This document shows positions 817 through 10,380 of a stretch of DNA of 10,599 nt, piece after piece. This DNA is from Candidatus Undinarchaeota archaeon (GTDB lineage: Archaea; SpSt-1190; JASMDC01): assembly GCA_964519305.1 (NCBI GenBank), contig CAZFHY010000021.1, forward strand, positions 50,575-61,173, written 5' to 3'. The notes beneath the pieces are model-generated. The model made no database searches. It was not told where the DNA came from and was given only the letters and a program-made list of their open reading frames with translations. The position numbers and the translations under genes are program-made. Position 1 is the first letter of the stretch; each line of letters opens with the position of its first letter.

Positions 817-1548
817 TCAGATGATGAGGGGGACGCGTTCCATGTACTCGGTGTACCCTTCGAGCTCCATCAGCTCCTTCTCCTCCGTCCGACATACACG
901 GATGTACCGGTAGATGAGGATGGGGGCCAATGTGACGGTGAGGATAGTAGGCCATCCGAGGATCCATCCGAGCAGCACGAGAATGAAACCGAGGTACTGG
1001 GGATTCCGTGAATATCGGTAGATGCCGCTAGTGACAAGGCCCCCGTCATGACCTTTGGAGTAGAGCGTGACCCATCCGACCGCGATTAAGAGCGCTCCGA
1101 TGACCATGAGGAGCGCACCATGGGCCATGGCGAACGTCATGCCGATGTTGACCCCTACTGGTGTCATTTCGACGACGATGGGCGCATGACCGATGGAATC
1201 CGCCTGGAATAGCTGTAGGGCCAGAAGGATGGTGAGCGGGATGCCGTACATCTCGATGAAGAGTGAAACGAAAAAGGCAGATACAAGGCCGTATTCACCC
1301 CAGTCCGCCTTCCGGCGGTATGAGAGGGGGATCAGGAAGGCGACGAAGAGGATTATGTTGAGCAACACGAAGTGCCATTCATCGGTCACTGCAACGGGAA
1401 GCACGTTTCCCGTAAAATGATCGTGGACGTGTGTGATTACATCGTCCAGGTGGGTGATCGGCCAGAGCAACAGGACAGCGAGCACGATGCGAGCAGGGAG
1501 GTTACGATATTTTCCCGGGTCTTCTGGCTCGTCCACCTTACTAGGCAT
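817..1548 (-). CDS. Isoprenylcysteine carboxyl methyltransferase / phospholipid methyltransferase (ICMT/PEMT) family membrane protein
   Basis: Several hydrophobic TM segments, the family motif LVTSGIYRYSRNPQYLG and a C-terminal EEKEL...YTEYMERVP. The true start may be GTG at 1536. Confidence 0.85.
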   Translation of the reverse strand: MPSKVDEPEDPGKYRNLPARIVLAVLLLWPITHLDDVITHVHDHFTGNVLPVAVTDEWHFVLLNIILFVAFLIPLSYRRKADWGEYGLVSAFFVSLFIEMYGIPLTILLALQLFQADSIGHAPIVVEMTPVGVNIGMTFAMAHGALLMVIGALLIAVGWVTLYSKGHDGGLVTSGIYRYSRNPQYLGFILVLLGWILGWPTILTVTLAPILIYRYIRVCRTEEKELMELEGYTEYMERVPLII

Positions 1549-2833: not shown

Positions 2834-2854
2834 TTGCAGCAAGGTGATGGGACA

Positions 2855-5485
2855 ATGGACCTTAATCGAATGACCCAACGATCACAGGAGGCGCTACAGA
2901 ACGCCAACACCACGGCCGTTCGCCTCGGCCATGTGGAAGTGGACGGTGAGCACCTGCTCCTGGCACTGCTGTCTCAAGATGATGGGCTCATCCCGCGCCT
3001 GTTCGAACGGATGCAGGTGGACGTCCCTGCTTTCCGCAACGAGCTCGAAGGTGAGCTGGGCCGTCGTCCAAAAGTGACTGGCACTGGGGGTGAGGCAGGT
3101 AAGGTGTACATCACCACACGTCTTAACCAGGCCCTGGTGAAGGCCGGGGATAAGGCTCGTAGCATGAATGATGAGTACGTTTCCGTTGAGCACCTCGTAC
3201 TGTCCCTTCTCGAGGAGGGGGCAAGTACGCCTGCCGGCAAGCTCTTCGATCAGTTCGGGATCACGCAGGAACGGTTCCTCGACACACTCACTACCGTGCG
3301 GGGTTGCCAGCGGGTGACCTCGGCGGATCCAGAGGGGACCTACGAGGCCCTCGCCCGGTACGGGAGGGACCTGGTGGCCGAGGCCCGGCTCAACCGCTTG
3401 GACCCTGTGATTGGCCGTGATGCTGAGATCCGTCGTGCGGTGCGTATACTATCACGGCGTACAAAGAACAATCCTGTTCTCATCGGCGAGCCCGGTACGG
3501 GCAAGACTGCCATCGTGGAGGGTCTGGCGCAGCGCATAGTGCGCGGTGATGTTCCCGAGGGGCTCAAGAACAAGAGCGTGTTCGCGCTAGACATGGGTGC
3601 GCTCATCGCCGGTGCCAAGTACCGGGGCGAGTTCGAAGAACGACTGAAGGCCGTGCTCAACGAGGTCAAGGAGAGCGAGGGCCAGATCCTACTCTTCATA
3701 GACGAGCTCCACACGATCGTCGGGACAGGTAAGGCCGAAGGTGCTATCGATGCCGGGAACATGCTAAAGCCTATGCTGGCTCGTGGCGAGCTCCATTGCA
3801 TCGGTGCCACGACCCTCGATGAGTACCGCAAGTACGTCGAGAAGGACAAGGCCCTTGAGCGGCGGTTCCAGACCGTTCTCGTGGACCAGCCCTCCGTGGA
3901 GGACTCGGTGTCCATCCTTCGGGGACTGAAAGGGAGATTCGAGGAACATCACGGTGTCAAGATACTGGACAACTCCCTGGTCGCGGCAGCAGTGCTCTCT
4001 AATCGTTACATATCGGACAGGTTCCTGCCCGACAAGGCCATCGATCTGGTGGATGAGGCCTGCGCAATGATCCGCACGGAGATCGATAGCGATCCTGCCG
4101 AGCTGGACGAGGTGACGCGTCGCAGGACCCAGTTGGAGATCGAGGAGACGGCTCTGGCCAAGGAGAAGGACGCGGCGAGCAAGGAGCGTCTGGGAATCCT
4201 TAGGAAGGAGCTTGCTGATCTCAAGGATCGGGAGGCGACTATGCGCGCTCAGCTGGAGTCGGAGAAGGATGCCATCCACGGCAGCCAGTCACTACGCTCC
4301 GAGATCGAGCGCACGAAGCGGGATATCGAACGAGCCGAGCGTGAGTACGATCTCCAGACGGCTGCGGAGCTAAAGTACGGGAGTCTTCCCAAGCTACAGG
4401 AACAGCTGACTGAAGAGGAAGAACGACTTGCTAAAGGGAACGGCGGCAAGCTCCTGCGAGAGGTGGTCACAGAGGAGGAGATAGCCCAGATAGTCTCGAA
4501 GTGGACTGGCGTCCCTGTGACGCGGCTCATGGAGGGTGAGCGTGAGAAACTACTGAAGCTGGATGAGGTGCTCCACCAGCGTGTCATTGGCCAGGACGAG
4601 GCTGTCCAGCGCGTGGCGGACGCAGTCATCCGGGCCCGGTCGGGTATCAAGGACCCGCAGCGTCCCATCGGTTCGTTTATCTTCCTAGGTCCGACAGGGG
4701 TAGGGAAGACCGAACTGGGTAGACGCCTGGCCGAGTCACTGTTCGACTCGGAAGACAACATGATCCGTATCGATATGAGCGAATACATGGAGCGTCATGC
4801 GGTCTCACGCCTCATCGGCGCACCTCCGGGTTATATCGGATATGATGAGGGCGGTCAGCTCACCGAAGCAGTGCGACGCAAACCATATGCTGTCATTCTT
4901 TTCGATGAGATCGAAAAGGCCCATCGTGATGTGTTCAATGTTCTTCTTCAGATCCTTGACGATGGGCGGCTCACTGACTCGCATGGGCGTACGGTGGACT
5001 TCAAGAACAGCATTATCATCATGACCTCAAACATCGGTTCTCAACTCCTTCTAGAGGGGATCACTGAGGGCGGATCCGTCCCTGATGATGTCCGTGCGAA
5101 CGTGATGAGTATGCTCATGGGCCACTTCCCGCCTGAGTTCCTGAACCGCGTGGACGAGACTGTGCTCTTCAAGTCATTGACGCGGGATGAGATCCGGCGA
5201 ATCGTGGACCTTCAAGTGGAGGATCTATCTGCCCGTTTGGCCGGGCGAAGAATGGTTCTTGAGTTGTCCGACGCGGCTCGCGACTTCATTGCCGAAGCTG
5301 GTTATGATCCTGTCTTCGGAGCACGCCCACTCAAGCGATATCTCCAACGGGAGGTCGAGACGCTCATCGCTCGGGTAATTCTTGCCGAGGCTGTCCCTGA
5401 CGGCTCGCGTGTGGTCGTGGATGTGGGTGATGAGGGGCTCACGGTCCGTCATGTATCCTCCGACGTGGGATCGGTCGTTCCGTAG
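2855..5485 (+). CDS. clpB: ATP-dependent disaggregase ClpB (Hsp100)
   Basis: Clp N domain, NBD1 ([40 protein letters not shown]), a long coiled-coil M domain and NBD2 ([33 protein letters not shown]). Start placed at ATG 2855 behind the AGGTGA SD at 2842-2847, rather than at TTG 2834. Confidence 0.97.
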
Positions 5486-5546
5486 CGTTCTGGTACGCGA
5501 ACTACGAATCCCGGACAAGAACGGTCCACTTCCGAGTGGTCACGGA

Positions 5547-5569
5547 AATTTAATAACATTTATTAAGTT
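5547..5569. promoter_or_regulatory. TATA-like box embedded in an inverted repeat upstream of the wHTH gene
   Basis: TTAATAA-CAT-TTATTAA (5550-5566), extendable to 10-3-10 with one mismatch. Confidence 0.45.
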
Positions 5570-5671
5570 CAGAATCCACACGATCGACTGGGGTACGGAA
5601 CACCTATTTTGAGTGGGTGTTCAAAATGGCCGGACCGGGAACGCCGGCCAAGCGAGAGAGGGTACGAGAGA

Positions 5672-6046
5672 ATGTTGAGCAAATTGCGAGAGCTCTTATT
5701 CTTCACGGCTGAAGGGACCGTGGAGGAATGGGGAGAATCCCTCAACGAGGCACCGGGGGGCGAGATATACGAAGCCGCTGAAGACGCTCTTCCCGTCTCG
5801 AATCTGTGTGGGACTGAGGCAAAGGTGGCTGCTGTCGTCCTTCAGAGCCGAAAACCGATGACCTATGTGGAACTGTCGCGTAAAGTGGGGATGAAGGTCA
5901 GTCGTGTGCGTAAGGTATGTCGTGGGCTTGAGAACCGGGGACTCGTCTCCAAGAACGGATGGAAGGAGGTGCCTTTCGATCAACGCCGCCGCACTGTGTC
6001 GCCCACTGCGCGTCTAAGGGATGCTGAGGTCGCTGTCTGGTCCTAA
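5672..6046 (+). CDS. Winged helix-turn-helix DNA-binding protein (TrmB/MarR-like)
   Basis: LCGTEAKVAAVVLQSRKPMTYVELSRKVGMKVSRVRKVCRGLENRGLVSK fits the wHTH pattern. ATG at 5672 is preferred over TTG 5609, but the start is uncertain. Confidence 0.7.
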   Translation: MLSKLRELLFFTAEGTVEEWGESLNEAPGGEIYEAAEDALPVSNLCGTEAKVAAVVLQSRKPMTYVELSRKVGMKVSRVRKVCRGLENRGLVSKNGWKEVPFDQRRRTVSPTARLRDAEVAVWS

Positions 6047-6136
6047 GCTGTGTATGTCCTACGTCGCCTTTCAATAGAACCGGATATGCATGGACATCGG
6101 ATTCGATGACTTAGGCAGTGGTCGGGGGAGGATTAT

Positions 6137-6159
6137 CGGGAGGGGAACATCCCCTCCCG
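6137..6159. terminator. GC-rich hairpin just 3' of tRNA-Pro, between convergent genes
   Basis: Perfect 10-bp stem CGGGAGGGGA / TCCCCTCCCG with a 3-nt loop. Function is inferred. Confidence 0.5.
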
Positions 6160-6162
6160 TAG

Positions 6163-6237
6163 TGGGGCCGACGAGATTTGAACTCATGTCGCCGGATCCC
6201 GAACCCGGAAGGATGGACCAAGCTACCCTACGGCCCC
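6163..6237 (-). tRNA. tRNA-Pro (anticodon CGG), intronless, CCA not encoded
   Basis: The reverse complement GGGGCCG TA GGGTAGCTTGGTCCATCC TT CCGGG TTCGGGA TCCGG CGAC ATGAG TTCAAAT CTCGT CGGCCCC A folds as a cloverleaf. A TATA-like TTTTTAAAA lies upstream at 6285-6277. Confidence 0.95.
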
Positions 6238-6289
6238 TCTAGTTCTCATGGAACTTTCACGTGGAGTTTCTGCAAGTTTTAAAAAGGGA

Positions 6290-7200
6290 CCGATATCGAC
6301 TGATGACGAACAATTCGACAATTGTCGAGTTTATATGAAAACAAATAAAATCGTCAAATGACGTAATAAATGGGAATGTGAATTCTGGACATTTAACGTT
6401 AGGGTTCACGTATTGCGTTTTTCCTCAATTTGATGGTTTTTGCGCTCAAATCCTTCGAGCAGCCTGATCTTGGGCTCATTGGGTGTGGAGTTGTTCTCAT
6501 GTATTATAATGGTGTCATATTTTTCGGTTGGAAACTGGTGATGGGCTGCGTAGAGTCCCGTATATGTTGTTAAGCGTGGGGAATGGCGGGCAAATGTAAT
6601 GAAGGCTGATTATATTTAGTGATGTAAAGAATAGTTGCATAATTGGGGGTATAATTAGTAATACAGCAGGGTAAGTGCGTTATATAATATACTCTGTAAA
6701 GTATTTGTCTAATATAATTAATGGATGTCTTTGCGTATGACATACTACTAATCAGCGCTTAATATTAATAATAACCGGGATTGCAACTAAAATACAGGAC
6801 TGTTATAAAAAAAACAAATATAAAGCACTCAAATAAGGATACAGCATGTAAATAGTGCTATTGAACGGAATATAAGGGAATATATAAGCAATAATCAAAA
6901 AACCGTAAATATATGGAGTAATACATATAAAACATGCAATAAATATGTAGTATAATGTATACAAGGATATGAATCGAAAATAAGACAAAATAAAGAGAAA
7001 AAAAAGAACAATAAAAGTAACAACAAGATACTTTACGTAATAAGGGAAAAAACCAAGATTTATGGCATAAGGGTATGAAATAAGGTAGAAATGACGTTAA
7101 AAACGCTTGTTGCGGACCGCACACTGACCCAAAAACATGGTTTTCTCAAGCATATAGCTGATAAAATGGGTGCGTTTTGTTGATAATTACGGCATCCAAC
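6290..7200. other. Long AT-rich non-coding region with ~10-bp periodicity (possible replication origin or DNA-architecture element)
   Basis: Far more AT-rich than the flanking genes, with no credible ORF. G/C clusters recur about every 10 bp over at least 6826-7105. Confidence 0.55.
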
Positions 7201-7216
7201 GAAATCTTTTTAAGTA
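7201..7216 (+). promoter_or_regulatory. BRE/TATA promoter of the ftsZ transcript
   Basis: GAAATC-TTTTTAAG. The expected TSS near 7235-7240 coincides with the start of the structured leader. Confidence 0.6.
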
Positions 7217-7239
7217 ATTACTCGACATAGAAAAAATCA

Positions 7240-7371
7240 CCCGTTGCAAGGGTTGTGTACCCCACTTCCTTGCTTCGCCCAATGGATCAAAGTCCACTCC
7301 CTGGGCAGCGCATGACGGTGGTCATGCGGGTCATGAGTCCAAACTAGACCGACCCATAAGGCGAGAACGGG
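7240..7371 (+). ncRNA. Candidate structured 5' leader / cis-regulatory RNA upstream of ftsZ
   Basis: Nested stems: CCCGTT/AACGGG, GCAAGG/CCTTGC, TTCGCC/GGCGAG, TGGA/TCCA, TGGG/CCCA, CGCATGAC/GTCATGCG and GGTC/GACC. Confidence 0.5.
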
Positions 7372-7412
7372 AACAATGGAACAAGTGATGAACAAGAAGG
7401 GGTTGGGATATA

Positions 7413-8486
7413 ATGGAGTCGATCATACAAAACGCCTTACAGAACATTCGAGACGAGGACGAACAGGTTCAGGCCGGACAGCCCAGGATATTTATAGTGG
7501 GTTGCGGTGGGGCCGGGAACAACACAGCTGACCGCCTATATTCTATGGGTATCAGTGGGGCCGAGATCATTTCGATCAACACCGACAAGCAGCATCTTGA
7601 CTGCCGTGAAGCAGACAAGAAGCTTCTCATCGGTGCAGAGCTCACCAAGGGTCTGGGTGCTGGTGGCTACCCTCAGGTAGGCAAGGCAGCCGCAGAAGAA
7701 TCAAAGCAGGAGATCAAGGAATGGCTCCGCGACGCGGACCTCGTGTTCATCACTGCTGGTATGGGTGGCGGGACCGGTACAGGCTCCGCATCCGTTGTTG
7801 CCGAGATCGCACGCAACGCCGGCGCGATCGTCATTGGTGTCGTAACGATGCCATTCAAGCTGGAGAAGGCTCGCATATTCAAGGCCGAGACAGGCCTCAT
7901 GGAGCTGCGGAAGAACTCCGACACGGTCATTGTCATTGACAACAACCGCCTTGTAGAGATTGCAGGTAACCTTCCCATTGGTGCCGCTTTCTCCGTTGCA
8001 GATGAGCTCATCTCAACCATGATCAAGGGTATCGTGGAGACCATCGCGGTCAACTCCCTTGTCAACCTCGACTACGCTGACGTCAAGGCCATAATGAAAG
8101 ATGGCGGCGTCGCTATGATCGGAGTTGGCGAGTCAACATCCGAGCACAAGGCCGAAGAGGCTGTCAAGAAGGCACTCAACACGCCCCTCCTGGACGTGGA
8201 CTACGCTGGTGCCACCGGAGCACTTATCCACATCGTGGGTGGGCCCGACATGACCCTCGACGAGGCCAACAAGATCGGCGACCTAGTCACCGCCAAGCTC
8301 GATGACAATGCGAACGTCATCTGGGGTGCTCGCGTCGACGGCCACATGGACGGACGGGTCCGCGTGATGACCATCATCACCGGGGTCAACTCGCCCTTCA
8401 TCCTGGGCCGCATCGACGAGAGGCAGGCGAAGGCCAACGAGGCCGAGAAGGTCAAGGCCGAGCTCGGGATCGAGATCATCCGATAG
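7413..8486 (+). CDS. ftsZ: Cell division GTPase FtsZ (archaeal, FtsZ2-like)
   Basis: [22 protein letters not shown], the tubulin signature [11 protein letters not shown]7 loop VNLDYAD, PLLDVDY and NVIWGAR, plus the archaeal-type C-terminal LGIEIIR. The FtsZ2 assignment is by resemblance to remembered sequences. Confidence 0.97.
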
Positions 8487-8608: not shown

Positions 8609-8745
8609 CCCCTTCTTCATATCCAATCGCATGACGCGTAGCTATCGGTATTGTCCGCGGTCTGCCCGGCAATAGCCATTTAAACCTGACATCGTCACGC
8701 CAACTCGTAATGGGGAGGGTGACGCGCGCCCTGGGAGAGGAGCAC

Positions 8746-9432
8746 ATGGGGCAGAAGCTCCTCTGCCTCGAGGGGCTGATCGGTGCCGGGAAGACGACGC
8801 TCATCAACGAGCTCAGGAACACCAAGGACTTCTACTTCATCACGGAACCCGTTCTCCAGTGGCAACGCCAGATCGATTCGAGGTCCCTGCTTGGAAATCT
8901 CTACTCTGATTTCCACCGGTGGAGCTACACGTTCCAGGTGAACTCGGTGCTCACCCGTGCCCAGGCCATCGAGGAGGAGAGCAGGTTATCACGTGGCCGC
9001 CATCTTGTGATGGAGCGGTCCCTCCTCTCGGACCGGGAGTGTTTCGCTCGCCTATACTTCGACTCAGGACAGATGTCGGCACTGGAGTGGTATTGGTATA
9101 CCAGATGGTACGATCATATCAACGCGAAGATAAAGTCCGTCGGTGCTTTCGTTTACCTGCGTGTCGATGCAGAGGTAGCTCTGGAGCGCATCAAGAAGCG
9201 TGCCCGCAGTGAGGAGGTGGACATCGATATAGAATACCTCCGGGCCCTCAACCGCAGGTATGAGGTGCTGTTCGCGGGTGGTGAGGCGTCCACAGCCCAA
9301 GGACGTATCCCCGTCCTAGTGGTCGATGGCAATCCCGACGTCATCAAGGATCCGGGGGCCAAGGACCGGATGATCGAGCAAGTGTTCGACTTCCTCGAGG
9401 ATCAGGGATTCTCCAACGGAAAGGATGAGTGA
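8746..9432 (+). CDS. Deoxynucleoside kinase (dNK; dCK/dGK/dAK family)
   Basis: P-loop LEGLIGAGKTT, EPV..W, Y.D..RWSYTFQ, the ERS motif (VMERSLLSD) and lid RIKKRARSEE. ATG 8746 follows GGAGAGGAG; an alternative start is 8710. Confidence 0.92.
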   Translation: MGQKLLCLEGLIGAGKTTLINELRNTKDFYFITEPVLQWQRQIDSRSLLGNLYSDFHRWSYTFQVNSVLTRAQAIEEESRLSRGRHLVMERSLLSDRECFARLYFDSGQMSALEWYWYTRWYDHINAKIKSVGAFVYLRVDAEVALERIKKRARSEEVDIDIEYLRALNRRYEVLFAGGEASTAQGRIPVLVVDGNPDVIKDPGAKDRMIEQVFDFLEDQGFSNGKDE

Positions 9433-9528: not shown

Positions 9529-10380
9529 ATGATCGCTGAAGGAGGACTCTACGAACAGATCGACGGAGCGGCCGCTTATCTTGAGAGCACAGTGCCGGCC
9601 GAGAAGCTCGGTCATCATACTGTCAGTTTCGAGCAGAGCGGATATTCTCTGAGCGGAGGGATCTCTGCATGGGCGAACATATCTTACTTCGATGGCGCCA
9701 CACAGGACCCCTCGATGCACCGGCTCTCAATCGAAGGTCGTGTAGGGGAGGCTAAGGACACCGACCAGCTGATGGAGCAGTACGGGTCCGGCGACAACTT
9801 CTCGCTCAAGATGGAGGTGCACGGCGACGACTACGCGAGCAGCTTCTACAAGATCGAGCAGAAGGGCGACGAACTCACCCTGCGTGTGTTCGGAGAGAAG
9901 ACCGGTACGATGTCACGGATGAAGGACTGGTTCTACTCGAACGCTCCTAAGGTAGGGATCAAGGCCGAGGACAGACGGGCCTATACAATTATGAAGGACG
10001 TAATGGCCAAGTCGTTCGAAGAGGCAGGGATCGACTTCGATGTGGAAGACCTCTCCAACGGATCGTACACTCTTGATTCAAGCGTCACAGCAGGACAGAT
10101 CGGCACCCTCTATGAGGCGACCGTCCGTGAGCTCAAGGAGCGACGGACAGAGATGGACTCGGTCCTAATGTCGAGCGTTGACAATCCAGAGTCTCCACAA
10201 ACATCCATACTGCTCTCGTACTTCGATCAGCCAGGTCAGTTCTCCAAGGAAGAGCTCCGCCTGGTCCGACAGACCAAGGATGGATCACCGCTCTTAAGGC
10301 AGGAGGTCGATGACATGGTCTCGGAGTTCACCGAACGCAAAGCGATCATCGGGGACAAGTGGTCCATGAAGGTGCATTAG
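9529..10380 (+). CDS. Hypothetical acidic protein, 283 aa
   Basis: Long ORF with host-like GC-rich codon usage, an AGGTGA SD before the ATG and a TATA-like TTTATTAA at ~9481-9488. No motif recognised. Confidence 0.8.
   Translation: MIAEGGLYEQIDGAAAYLESTVPAEKLGHHTVSFEQSGYSLSGGISAWANISYFDGATQDPSMHRLSIEGRVGEAKDTDQLMEQYGSGDNFSLKMEVHGDDYASSFYKIEQKGDELTLRVFGEKTGTMSRMKDWFYSNAPKVGIKAEDRRAYTIMKDVMAKSFEEAGIDFDVEDLSNGSYTLDSSVTAGQIGTLYEATVRELKERRTEMDSVLMSSVDNPESPQTSILLSYFDQPGQFSKEELRLVRQTKDGSPLLRQEVDDMVSEFTERKAIIGDKWSMKVH

Follow-up and report, generated by a model that had tools for sequence, protein, structure and literature searches.

A helical rhythm kept without its sequence upstream of ftsZ in an Undinarchaeota archaeon: a DNA-shape array possibly wrapped by archaeal histones

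Introduction

What is preserved in a stretch of DNA that keeps its length and its helical rhythm while its letters are replaced, and what could read it? This question is raised by the ~1.17 kb without credible genes that lie between a tRNA-Pro gene and ftsZ in an uncultured marine Candidatus Undinarchaeota archaeon (G000, the genome under study). The window, by which we mean the whole stretch of DNA analysed (10,599 nucleotides, G000:C21:50575-61173; positions below count from its first letter), had been the subject of an earlier note in which short G/C clusters separated by A/T runs were seen to recur about every 10 bp upstream of ftsZ, and in which a shape-encoded element was proposed. In this study, we confirm that this periodic signal is real and strengthen the observation. 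Moreover, we show that the signal recurs in G001, the only other genome of the genus in the genome collection used for comparison (hereafter the sister genome). The element is best described, as far as its sequence indicates, as a selected DNA-shape array. The reading that we favor, tentatively and with a probability of roughly 45%, is that of a selected track wrapped by the organism's own HMf-type histones.

A coherent rhythm of about 65 helical turns

Throughout, W stands for A or T and S for G or C. The array and its two halves are as follows.

6500-7150, no strand: coherent helically phased W/S array of ~65 turns, carrying a 9.96-bp wave; 24-46% GC per 100-bp window
6550-6830, no strand: weaker left half of the array; in G000, powers of 9.9 (9.92 bp) and 8.4 (14.97 bp)
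6830-7110, plus strand: A-rich right half, in which the rhythm is strongest (power 19.5 at 9.92 bp)

The reality of the rhythm rests on spectra compared with 300 dinucleotide-preserving shuffles. Over 6550-7110 the G/C indicator has a spectral power of 20.7 at 9.9 bp (shuffles, 3.8 ± 1.7) and the WW dinucleotides a power of 30.2 (shuffles, 5.5 ± 2.0), and neither value was reached by any of the 300 shuffles. On a finer period grid (6500-7150) the peak falls at 9.96 bp with a power of 27.6-28.0; the significant peak that had been anticipated at ~10.0-10.3 bp is therefore there, with a period at the low end of the expected range. A 3-bp peak is absent from the top periods of the 6550-7110 spectrum. 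The 28 G/C clusters listed in the earlier note all lie on a G/C or at most one base from one, and their spacing keeps a common phase (Rayleigh R 0.81 at 9.96 bp). Because they were picks among the 51 G/C runs of 6820-7110, it is the spectrum that provides the valid, unbiased test, and it upholds the recurrence.

The same phase does reach back to ~6550, as had been claimed. The left half is weaker (power 9.6-9.9; over 6550-6820 a fraction of 0.010 of 300 shuffles is as high as the observed power), yet it adds coherently to the right half. When a single wave of fixed phase was projected onto half-overlapping 100-bp windows of G000, it came out positive in all 13 windows starting at 6500-7100 (z 1.3-4.2) and reached z 2 in none of the 10 windows starting outside that range, so that the array runs from ~6500 to ~7150. 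There is no repeated unit behind it, again as first described: the repeat search of the array yielded no more than three families of short direct repeats with two copies each, three inverted pairs, also short, and one A-rich tandem of 11 bp with a low score.

In composition the array stands apart from its surroundings, with GC dropping from 55-60% to 26-30% within 6600-7050. The segment 6800-7100 consists of 52% A, 22% T and ~26% GC, and a phase logo of the right half shows G/C at 52-53% on the crest and at 7-10% in the trough. The AT skew of the right half (6830-7110) is +0.41 in G000 and +0.26 in G001, and T predominates in both genomes just left of the weaker half (6400-6650; AT skew -0.25 and -0.18). 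A mis-join or mis-assembly of the region is unlikely: contigs of four runs, from two studies, each cover 5900-7700 and show 0 differences, although the assembly itself may have been built from these runs.

The rhythm is carried by all A/T dinucleotides, with G/C half a turn away

AA/TT, AT and TA peak together at a phase of 2.0-2.9 bp in both genomes. As classes, WW peaks at 2.5 bp in G000 and 2.1 bp in G001 and SS at 7.4 and 6.9 bp, i.e., 4.8-4.9 bp apart, and the WW power at 9.96 bp amounts to 37.4 and 46.0, respectively. The rule described for archaeal nucleosomal DNA is a 10-bp repeat of AA/AT/TA/TT offset by 5 bp from GG/GC/CG/CC (PMC3691661). Strict A-tracts without TpA number 24 in G000 (R 0.44, p ~0.01) and 20 in G001 (R 0.42, p ~0.03); they are thus sparse and only weakly in phase, and the signature of classical curved DNA probably does not carry the signal.

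A second peak, at 14.97 bp, is found in both genomes (powers 8.8 and 8.5) with phases 0.7 bp apart, and the GC profiles of the two genomes folded at 29.9 bp correlate with r 0.79. This peak is lacking in the other periodic loci examined. It has been reported that 30 bp is the length of DNA per archaeal histone dimer (PMC10516927). The 10- and 15-bp peaks could be the third and second harmonics of a 30-bp unit, an interpretation that is suggestive only.

The sister genome keeps the rhythm and loses the sequence

Three features come from the comparison with G001.

6366-7106, no strand: diverged, length-constant block between the BLAST anchors 6365 and 7107
6492-6514, no strand: conserved island in the diverged block, 95.7% identical to G001 over 23 bp
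6619-6632, no strand: second conserved island (GTGATGTAAAGAAT), made of alignment columns invariant with G001

The flanks of the array align well between the two genomes (83% identity over 5502-6365 and 90.5% over 7107-7600, with flank identities of up to 96%). Between the two anchors blastn found nothing but the 23-bp island, which is possibly a protein-binding or promoter element, and still the distance between the anchors is exactly 742 bp in both genomes, with the same offset at both anchors. The ungapped identity of the 742-bp block is 0.423; it is 0.33-0.37 at lags of ±10, 20 and 30 bp and 0.27-0.31 out of phase. Aligned globally with gaps, the core (6640-7090) scores only z 2.1 above 10-bp block shuffles, with a fraction of 0.025 of 200 reaching the score. 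In the five flanking genes a fraction of 0.23-0.41 of the four-fold degenerate sites differs (59-77% identity), and by that measure the block has diverged beyond synonymous sites.

The rhythm of this diverged block is intact. In G001 the array has a power of 26.2-26.3, compared with 27.6-28.0 in G000, the block is equally AT-rich, the phases of the 9.96-bp wave are 0.4 bp apart, and the wave of the same fixed phase gives z 2.0-4.4 in the same windows, with identical array limits. The left half has a power of 10.5 at 9.92 bp and 6.0 at 14.97 bp in G001, with phases within 0.3-0.5 bp of those in G000. The best local lags between the genomes lie between -2 and +1 bp in each of eight sub-windows, and both share a composition gradient that runs from T-rich at the left end to A-rich at the right.

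Could a rhythm of this strength simply have been inherited? We simulated neutral decay by resampling sites of G000 from the regional composition, with 1000 runs per identity level. Decay to 42% identity left a power of 3.4 ± 1.5 (maximum 10.9) and decay to 62% identity a power of 6.8 ± 3.0 (maximum 21.8), and at neither level did any of the 1000 runs reach 26.2. Since neutral decay never retains the power seen in G001, the rhythm has been maintained and not passively inherited; the constant length and register imply, moreover, that insertions and deletions (indels) were removed. It seems that selection has preserved DNA shape, not sequence. The proposal of a shape-encoded rather than sequence-encoded element is thereby supported, with period, phase, length, extent and AT content kept in G001 and the sequence nearly randomised, and the periodic but sequence-divergent DNA that the earlier note suggested looking for ahead of ftsZ in relatives exists in the sister genome. 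Two metagenome contigs add to the picture in a limited way: one (L107) is identical in profile to G001 and so not independent, and the other (L106) starts exactly at the right edge of the AT-rich block and informs the flank only.

Standing of the array within the genome

A scan of G000 in 300-bp windows (72,448 in total), with three permuted genome-equivalents as the null, gave nine windows with a power of at least 16 and none in the permutations, whose maximum was 14.6. At a power of at least 12 there were 20 windows compared with 2.0 in permutation, and at a power of at least 9 there were 73 compared with 75. A list of 37 "periodic loci" drawn up at a power of at least 9.05 was therefore discarded as mostly noise, given that permutation yields equal numbers and that only values of ~12 or more stand out. 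The loci above power 16 are C4:62351, the ftsZ array, C1:456051 and C1:163851, and ~four more exceed 12. The ftsZ array is the second most periodic locus of the genome, after C4:62351-63000, and it is also the most AT-rich and the longest AT-rich stretch. Low GC alone does not create the rhythm, because only 3 of the 26 loci holding a window below 38% GC reach a power of 10.

The strong periodic loci all lie in long intergenic gaps beside unrelated genes. Their period varies from 9.8 to 10.6 bp, and the WW/SS antiphase is also present in all five periodic loci tested. Three of the four other loci checked in G001 are ordinary conserved DNA there (81-88% identity) with a weaker rhythm; because the other loci are conserved or inserted, sequence turnover with a kept rhythm is special to the ftsZ locus. 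The strongest locus, C4:62351-63000 (L096:2550-3200), has a power of 27 at 10.34 bp over 650 bp at 35-44% GC, lies between a MarR/TrmB-type gene (203 aa) and a gene for a family-2 glycosyltransferase, and is 81% identical and still periodic (power 16.9) in G001. The fourth of the loci checked, the periodic intergenic region C5:7273-7765 (L099:2574-3066), is without a counterpart in G001; it belongs to an insertion of ~450 bp in G000 that comprises an AT-rich stretch and a small cysteine-rich open reading frame (ORF) with CxxC-type motifs. The pooled spectrum of 583 other intergenic gaps shows a small peak at 9.9 bp (1.16 vs. ~0.9), and no comparable 9.9-bp peak is found in the coding DNA of G000.

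Both edges of the diverged block carry a direct repeat (13 of 15 bases identical, core AATGACGT) at 6356-6370 and 7089-7103, and the AATGACGT core is at both block edges in G001 too. It may be due to chance or represent a pair of protein-binding sites 733 bp apart. Together with the absence of the C5 locus from G001, this 15-nt repeat had raised the idea of a mobile cassette, which we rejected as the main explanation: conservation declines gradually at the left edge, the C5 locus is an insertion that brings a small gene of its own, and the block is present once in the genome and matches nothing in phage or plasmid collections.

Position between two putative divergent promoters

The following features frame the array.

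6162-6237, minus strand: tRNA-Pro (CGG) gene, found by ARAGORN (Rfam RF00005, 51.2 bits), transcribed away from the array
6279-6286, minus strand: putative TATA-like box (CTTTTTAA, read on this strand) of tRNA-Pro; the surrounding block is conserved in G001
7200-7213, plus strand: putative BRE-like (TFB recognition element; CGAAA) and TATA-like (CTTTTTAA) elements of ftsZ, 14 of 14 bases invariant in 3 of 3 lineages
7236-7412, plus strand: GC-rich conserved leader (or small RNA) of ~175 nt between the putative promoter and the ftsZ start codon
7413-8486, plus strand: ftsZ (FtsZ1-type, 357 aa; Pfam Tubulin 1.1e-47, FtsZ_C 1e-34)

The two putative promoters, whose TATA-like boxes (6279-6286 and 7206-7213) and, before ftsZ, BRE-like element we assign by the archaeal promoter consensus, have the 8-mer CTTTTTAA in common, and the array occupies most of the 930 bp between them. 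The earlier note placed the element directly ahead of the ftsZ promoter. This is correct in that the array ends ~55-95 bases upstream of the putative TATA box (7206-7213); it is incomplete in that the array is shared with the divergent tRNA-Pro promoter and is not simply an element of ftsZ.

Over 7180-7412, identity amounts to 92.2% with G001 and 96.5% with L106, which is above the synonymous-site conservation of the neighboring genes. The leader, which may be a regulatory leader or a small RNA, contains a hairpin (7309-7328) with one compensatory U-A to C-G double change in its stem in both relatives. The fold of the whole leader is not unusually stable (z -0.92), and a scan of 6000-7500 gave it no Rfam match.

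The genome holds a second FtsZ1-type gene (C8:14231-15265, 72% identical to the ftsZ of the window), an FtsZ2-type gene (C7:30973-31983, 51% identity) and a weak tubulin-family match (C1:39195-40148). Upstream of the second FtsZ1-type and the FtsZ2-type genes there is no periodic region (top powers 6.1 and 6.5).

ftsZ upstream regions in other prokaryotes

A rhythm with z above 3 was found upstream of 14 of 49 archaeal-type ftsZ loci, among which kin are not independent: four belong to this genus, eight to Archaeoglobi (10.8-11.5 bp), one to a Woesearchaeota metagenome-assembled genome (MAG) and one to a class relative. None of 100 bacterial-type ftsZ loci reached z 3, the upstream DNA in bacteria usually being a gene, and the difference between archaeal and bacterial loci is only a lead. 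The Woesearchaeota locus (L004:1433-1918) is a divergent gap of 486 bp before ftsZ, with 32% GC and a 10.2-10.3-bp rhythm (z 6.2). The Archaeoglobi loci (L012:2510-2985 and seven others) are gaps of ~475 bp ahead of ftsZ with a rhythm of ~11 bp; in L012, an Archaeoglobaceae MAG and the single locus of these analysed, the rhythm has a period of 11.1 bp in AA/TT only and is of the classical phased A-tract type.

Discussion

In this study, we found that a helical rhythm of A/T and G/C has been maintained upstream of ftsZ in two related genomes whose sequences there have become dissimilar. What could read such a track? With A/T-rich dinucleotides every 9.96 bp and G/C-rich ones half a turn off, one face of the helix would bend easily, and the most likely reader would be a pair of HMf-type histones. 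The genome encodes two canonical histones of this type (C8:31360-31548 and C17:71428-71616), with matches to the histone family PF00808 (69.8 and 64.8 bits) in ORFs of 66-69 aa with a GRKTV motif. The histone encoded on contig C8, the only one of the two searched against solved structures, has archaeal histone A, HMfA and HMfB as its best solved relatives (E ~1e-15). At 30 bp per dimer, an array of ~650 bp would accommodate one long, rotationally fixed hypernucleosome of ~21 dimers. Wrapped in this way, it would take up the 930 bp that separate the divergent promoters of tRNA-Pro and ftsZ and act there as a spacer or insulator of an architectural kind. Probably it would also be the platform that determines how the ftsZ promoter and the conserved islands upstream are presented to one another, by which it could influence the expression of ftsZ.

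Among the identities that the earlier note had offered, histone wrapping is the best fit, given the WW/SS antiphase, AT and TA in phase with the other A/T steps, the two histones and a second harmonic compatible with a 30-bp unit; the many A/T-only runs of the array argue against high occupancy. Indeed, several points weigh against this reading. Firstly, the array has a GC content of 24-31% over most of its length and contains 32 A/T runs of at least five bases in 561 bp, and it has been reported that A/T-only pentamers and intergenic regions are excluded from archaeal nucleosomes (PMC3691661). Secondly, a high-affinity histone site is described as not nucleating hypernucleosomes in vitro (PMC10151503). 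Thirdly, the 30-bp unit is itself without spectral power (1.4 and 0.5), and the 15-bp peak taken alone stays below the 95% global maximum of the shuffles. Furthermore, the strongest other locus keeps a period of 10.34 bp over 650 bp, which sits awkwardly with a single rigid lattice of protein, MC1 and Alba, also encoded, could be the readers instead, the comparison covers two lineages of a single genus, and among the small-genome relatives of the class only 1 of 10 ftsZ upstream regions has z above 3.

A fuller version of the histone reading can be imagined, in which the track sets both the rotational setting and, by way of a 30-bp super-period, the dimer register of one hypernucleosome of ~21 dimers. 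Indels would then be purged so that the islands and the ftsZ promoter keep a fixed arrangement in three dimensions, histone load or supercoiling would be read out at the ftsZ promoter, and the array would be the natural counterpart of the artificial 601 and Clone20 arrays. We regard this version as unlikely in its entirety. Two further ideas of the earlier note, that the array acts like a centromere and that it could link chromosome state to division, are speculation.

The alternative that survives best is that the DNA is intrinsically curved or superhelical, either free of histones or bound by a protein that prefers curves, such as MC1 or Alba, and that it pins a plectoneme or absorbs negative supercoils, thereby buffering or coupling the tRNA-Pro and ftsZ promoters. 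The DNA is indeed very AT-rich with phased A/T runs, it is placed between divergent putative promoters, and the genome encodes one MC1 (C6:142164-142415), one Alba and a gyrase A with six C-terminal blades (HU was not found in G000). In addition, the A-richness is mirror-like with respect to the sense strands of the two flanking genes, in G001 too, and the spread of periods between loci (9.8-10.6 bp) fits free DNA better than one protein lattice. However, the strict A-tracts that should carry such curvature are few and weakly phased (24 in G000, R 0.44, p ~0.01), TA and AT steps contribute an equally strong signal, unlike the AA/TT-only rhythm of 11.1 bp upstream of the Archaeoglobaceae ftsZ, and 9.96 bp is well below the helical repeat of free B-DNA, which is ~10.5 bp. 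Curvature without histones is thus possible but doubtful.

It is also conceivable that the periodicity is a consequence and not a cause, in that a stable protein-DNA complex makes mutation or repair dependent on helical phase and so leaves a W/S wave as an imprint in DNA that is otherwise free of constraint. In line with this, the block changes no more slowly than synonymous sites and its composition by phase is constant. Nevertheless, something would still have to hold the register throughout the separation of the two species, and the conserved length and sharp common limits point to purging of indels, that is, to selection; we consider an imprint quite improbable.

The gene next to tRNA-Pro brings in a further possibility.

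5609-6046, plus strand: small TrmB/MarR-type winged-helix gene, 145 aa (Pfam TrmB 26.3 bits), left of tRNA-Pro

The array might be a chromosome-domain boundary or roadblock, an AT-rich A-tract site at which a chromatin protein of the TrmB family stalls the structural maintenance of chromosomes (SMC) complex, as has been described for Thermococcus TrmBL2. This is attractive in that a TrmB-type winged-helix gene adjoins the ftsZ array and a MarR/TrmB-type gene adjoins the strongest other locus, and in that the placement of Smc that depends on TrmBL2 is reported to correlate with AT content and A-tracts (PMC11840125). The product of 5609-6046 is only a candidate reader of the array, however: the two winged-helix proteins are barely similar (E 0.029 over 38 residues) and no clear paralogs, they are small (145 and 203 aa), their orthology to TrmBL2 is itself only a candidate one, and helical phasing is not reported for TrmBL2 sites, the word "periodic" being absent from PMC11840125. 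A boundary of this kind is very unlikely.

The earlier note also offered an origin of replication, a site like a centromere or one strong gyrase site, and the array is the most AT-rich stretch of a genome that encodes gyrase. The sole Orc1/Cdc6 (Cdc6_C) match lies on contig C2, though; the locus has three short inverted pairs only and no inverted repeats like origin recognition boxes, and GC skew is positive throughout without a switch. A gyrase site wraps ~140 bp, and a single one is too small for a coherent array of 650 bp, even with gyrase encoded. Neither the origin nor the topoisomerase site was borne out, and this explanation is extremely unlikely. Lastly, a foreign AT-rich gene in decay or an RNA gene that escaped recognition, for which AT-richness in a GC-rich genome, skewed strand composition and short minus-strand ORFs (57, 61 and 88 aa) might speak, deserves hardly any weight: the decayed gene, which the earlier note held out as the outcome that would overturn it, is rejected by the lack of 3-bp periodicity and of any Pfam family for the three ORFs, a foreign gene is at odds with the lack of phage- or plasmid-collection matches and of a second copy in the genome and with the same place and length in the sister genome, and as to RNA, Rfam over 6000-7500 at E up to 1 yields only the tRNA at 6163-6237 and a 10-bp rhythm of conserved DNA phase is not expected.

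If the array is indeed a histone track, how does it compare with known systems? It resembles Widom 601 arrays, which are artificial and directed at eukaryotic histones, in being a sequence-encoded and regularly phased wrapping substrate; 601 arrays repeat an exact unit, whereas the present array has no repeated unit. Clone20, a 60-bp artificial sequence obtained for HMf histones by SELEX, is roughly half G/C and the array far more AT-rich. With Clone20 and the archaeal nucleosome signal in general, the array has in common the dinucleotide classes, the 5-bp offset and the ~10-bp period (PMC3691661, PMC10151503). However, the natural archaeal signals described there are weak averages over fragments of ~60 bp, and the array is a single coherent natural run of ~650 bp; according to PMC10151503, no sequences highly similar to Clone20 or 601 have been identified in genomes. 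The histone HpyA of Halobacterium salinarum is reported to bind a few discrete regions with ~10-bp periodicity, without genome-wide periodicity (PMC10128011). Like G000, this is a case of a high-GC archaeon with little genome-wide rhythm and a few periodic regions of a few hundred bp; the difference is that HpyA binding was measured by chromatin immunoprecipitation sequencing (ChIP-seq) at sites both in and between genes, and the loci of G000 are intergenic only and known from sequence. Clusters of curved A-tracts at prokaryotic promoters are likewise AT-rich, phased, intergenic and promoter-proximal (PMC516772, PMC3431218, PMC3372288), but they are described as AA/TT at ~10.5-11 bp, in contrast to the equal share of AT and TA, the 9.96-bp period and the coherence over 65 turns of the array. 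In open-access papers and preprints we found no phased array upstream of an archaeal ftsZ. The array thus appears to be a known kind of signal that would be new in its length, its coherence and the conservation of rhythm, register and length without sequence, which we consider notable.

Archaeal chromatin work relies on one artificial 60-bp positioning sequence. A natural array of 650 bp may provide a ready-made substrate for studying the positioning, initiation and limits of hypernucleosomes and a possible control of specific archaeal genes by histones, and G001 supplies a second natural version in which rhythm, register and length are identical and the sequence differs. Set side by side, the two genomes may also serve as a clean case of selection on DNA shape amid sequence turnover. 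The position before ftsZ, beside an unusually conserved leader, suggests a route by which chromosome state could reach cell division.

Genome and gene neighborhood

The genome G000 comprises 3.63 Mb in 42 contigs with 59.6% GC and is, by computed figures, 99.8% complete with 4.3% contamination. Its lineage is usually described as small-genome DPANN; G000 and its sister (3.8 Mb) are 3-6 times the size of 15 sampled class relatives (0.6-1.2 Mb). The remaining genes of the window are as follows.

817-1548, minus strand: PEMT-like gene
1838-2833: DnaJ gene
2834-5485: ClpB gene
8710-9432: deoxynucleoside kinase gene
9529-10380: ORF of unknown function
after 9529-10380: tRNA-Ser gene

Compared with its ortholog in G001, the TrmB-type winged-helix protein of 5609-6046 has 73% protein identity, the lowest among the five neighboring genes, the other four having 86-98%. 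In the sister genome, the ortholog of a polyprenyl synthetase (G001:C28:15037-16155, L188) matches with two in-frame TAG codons, which may reflect an assembly error, a broken gene or recoding.

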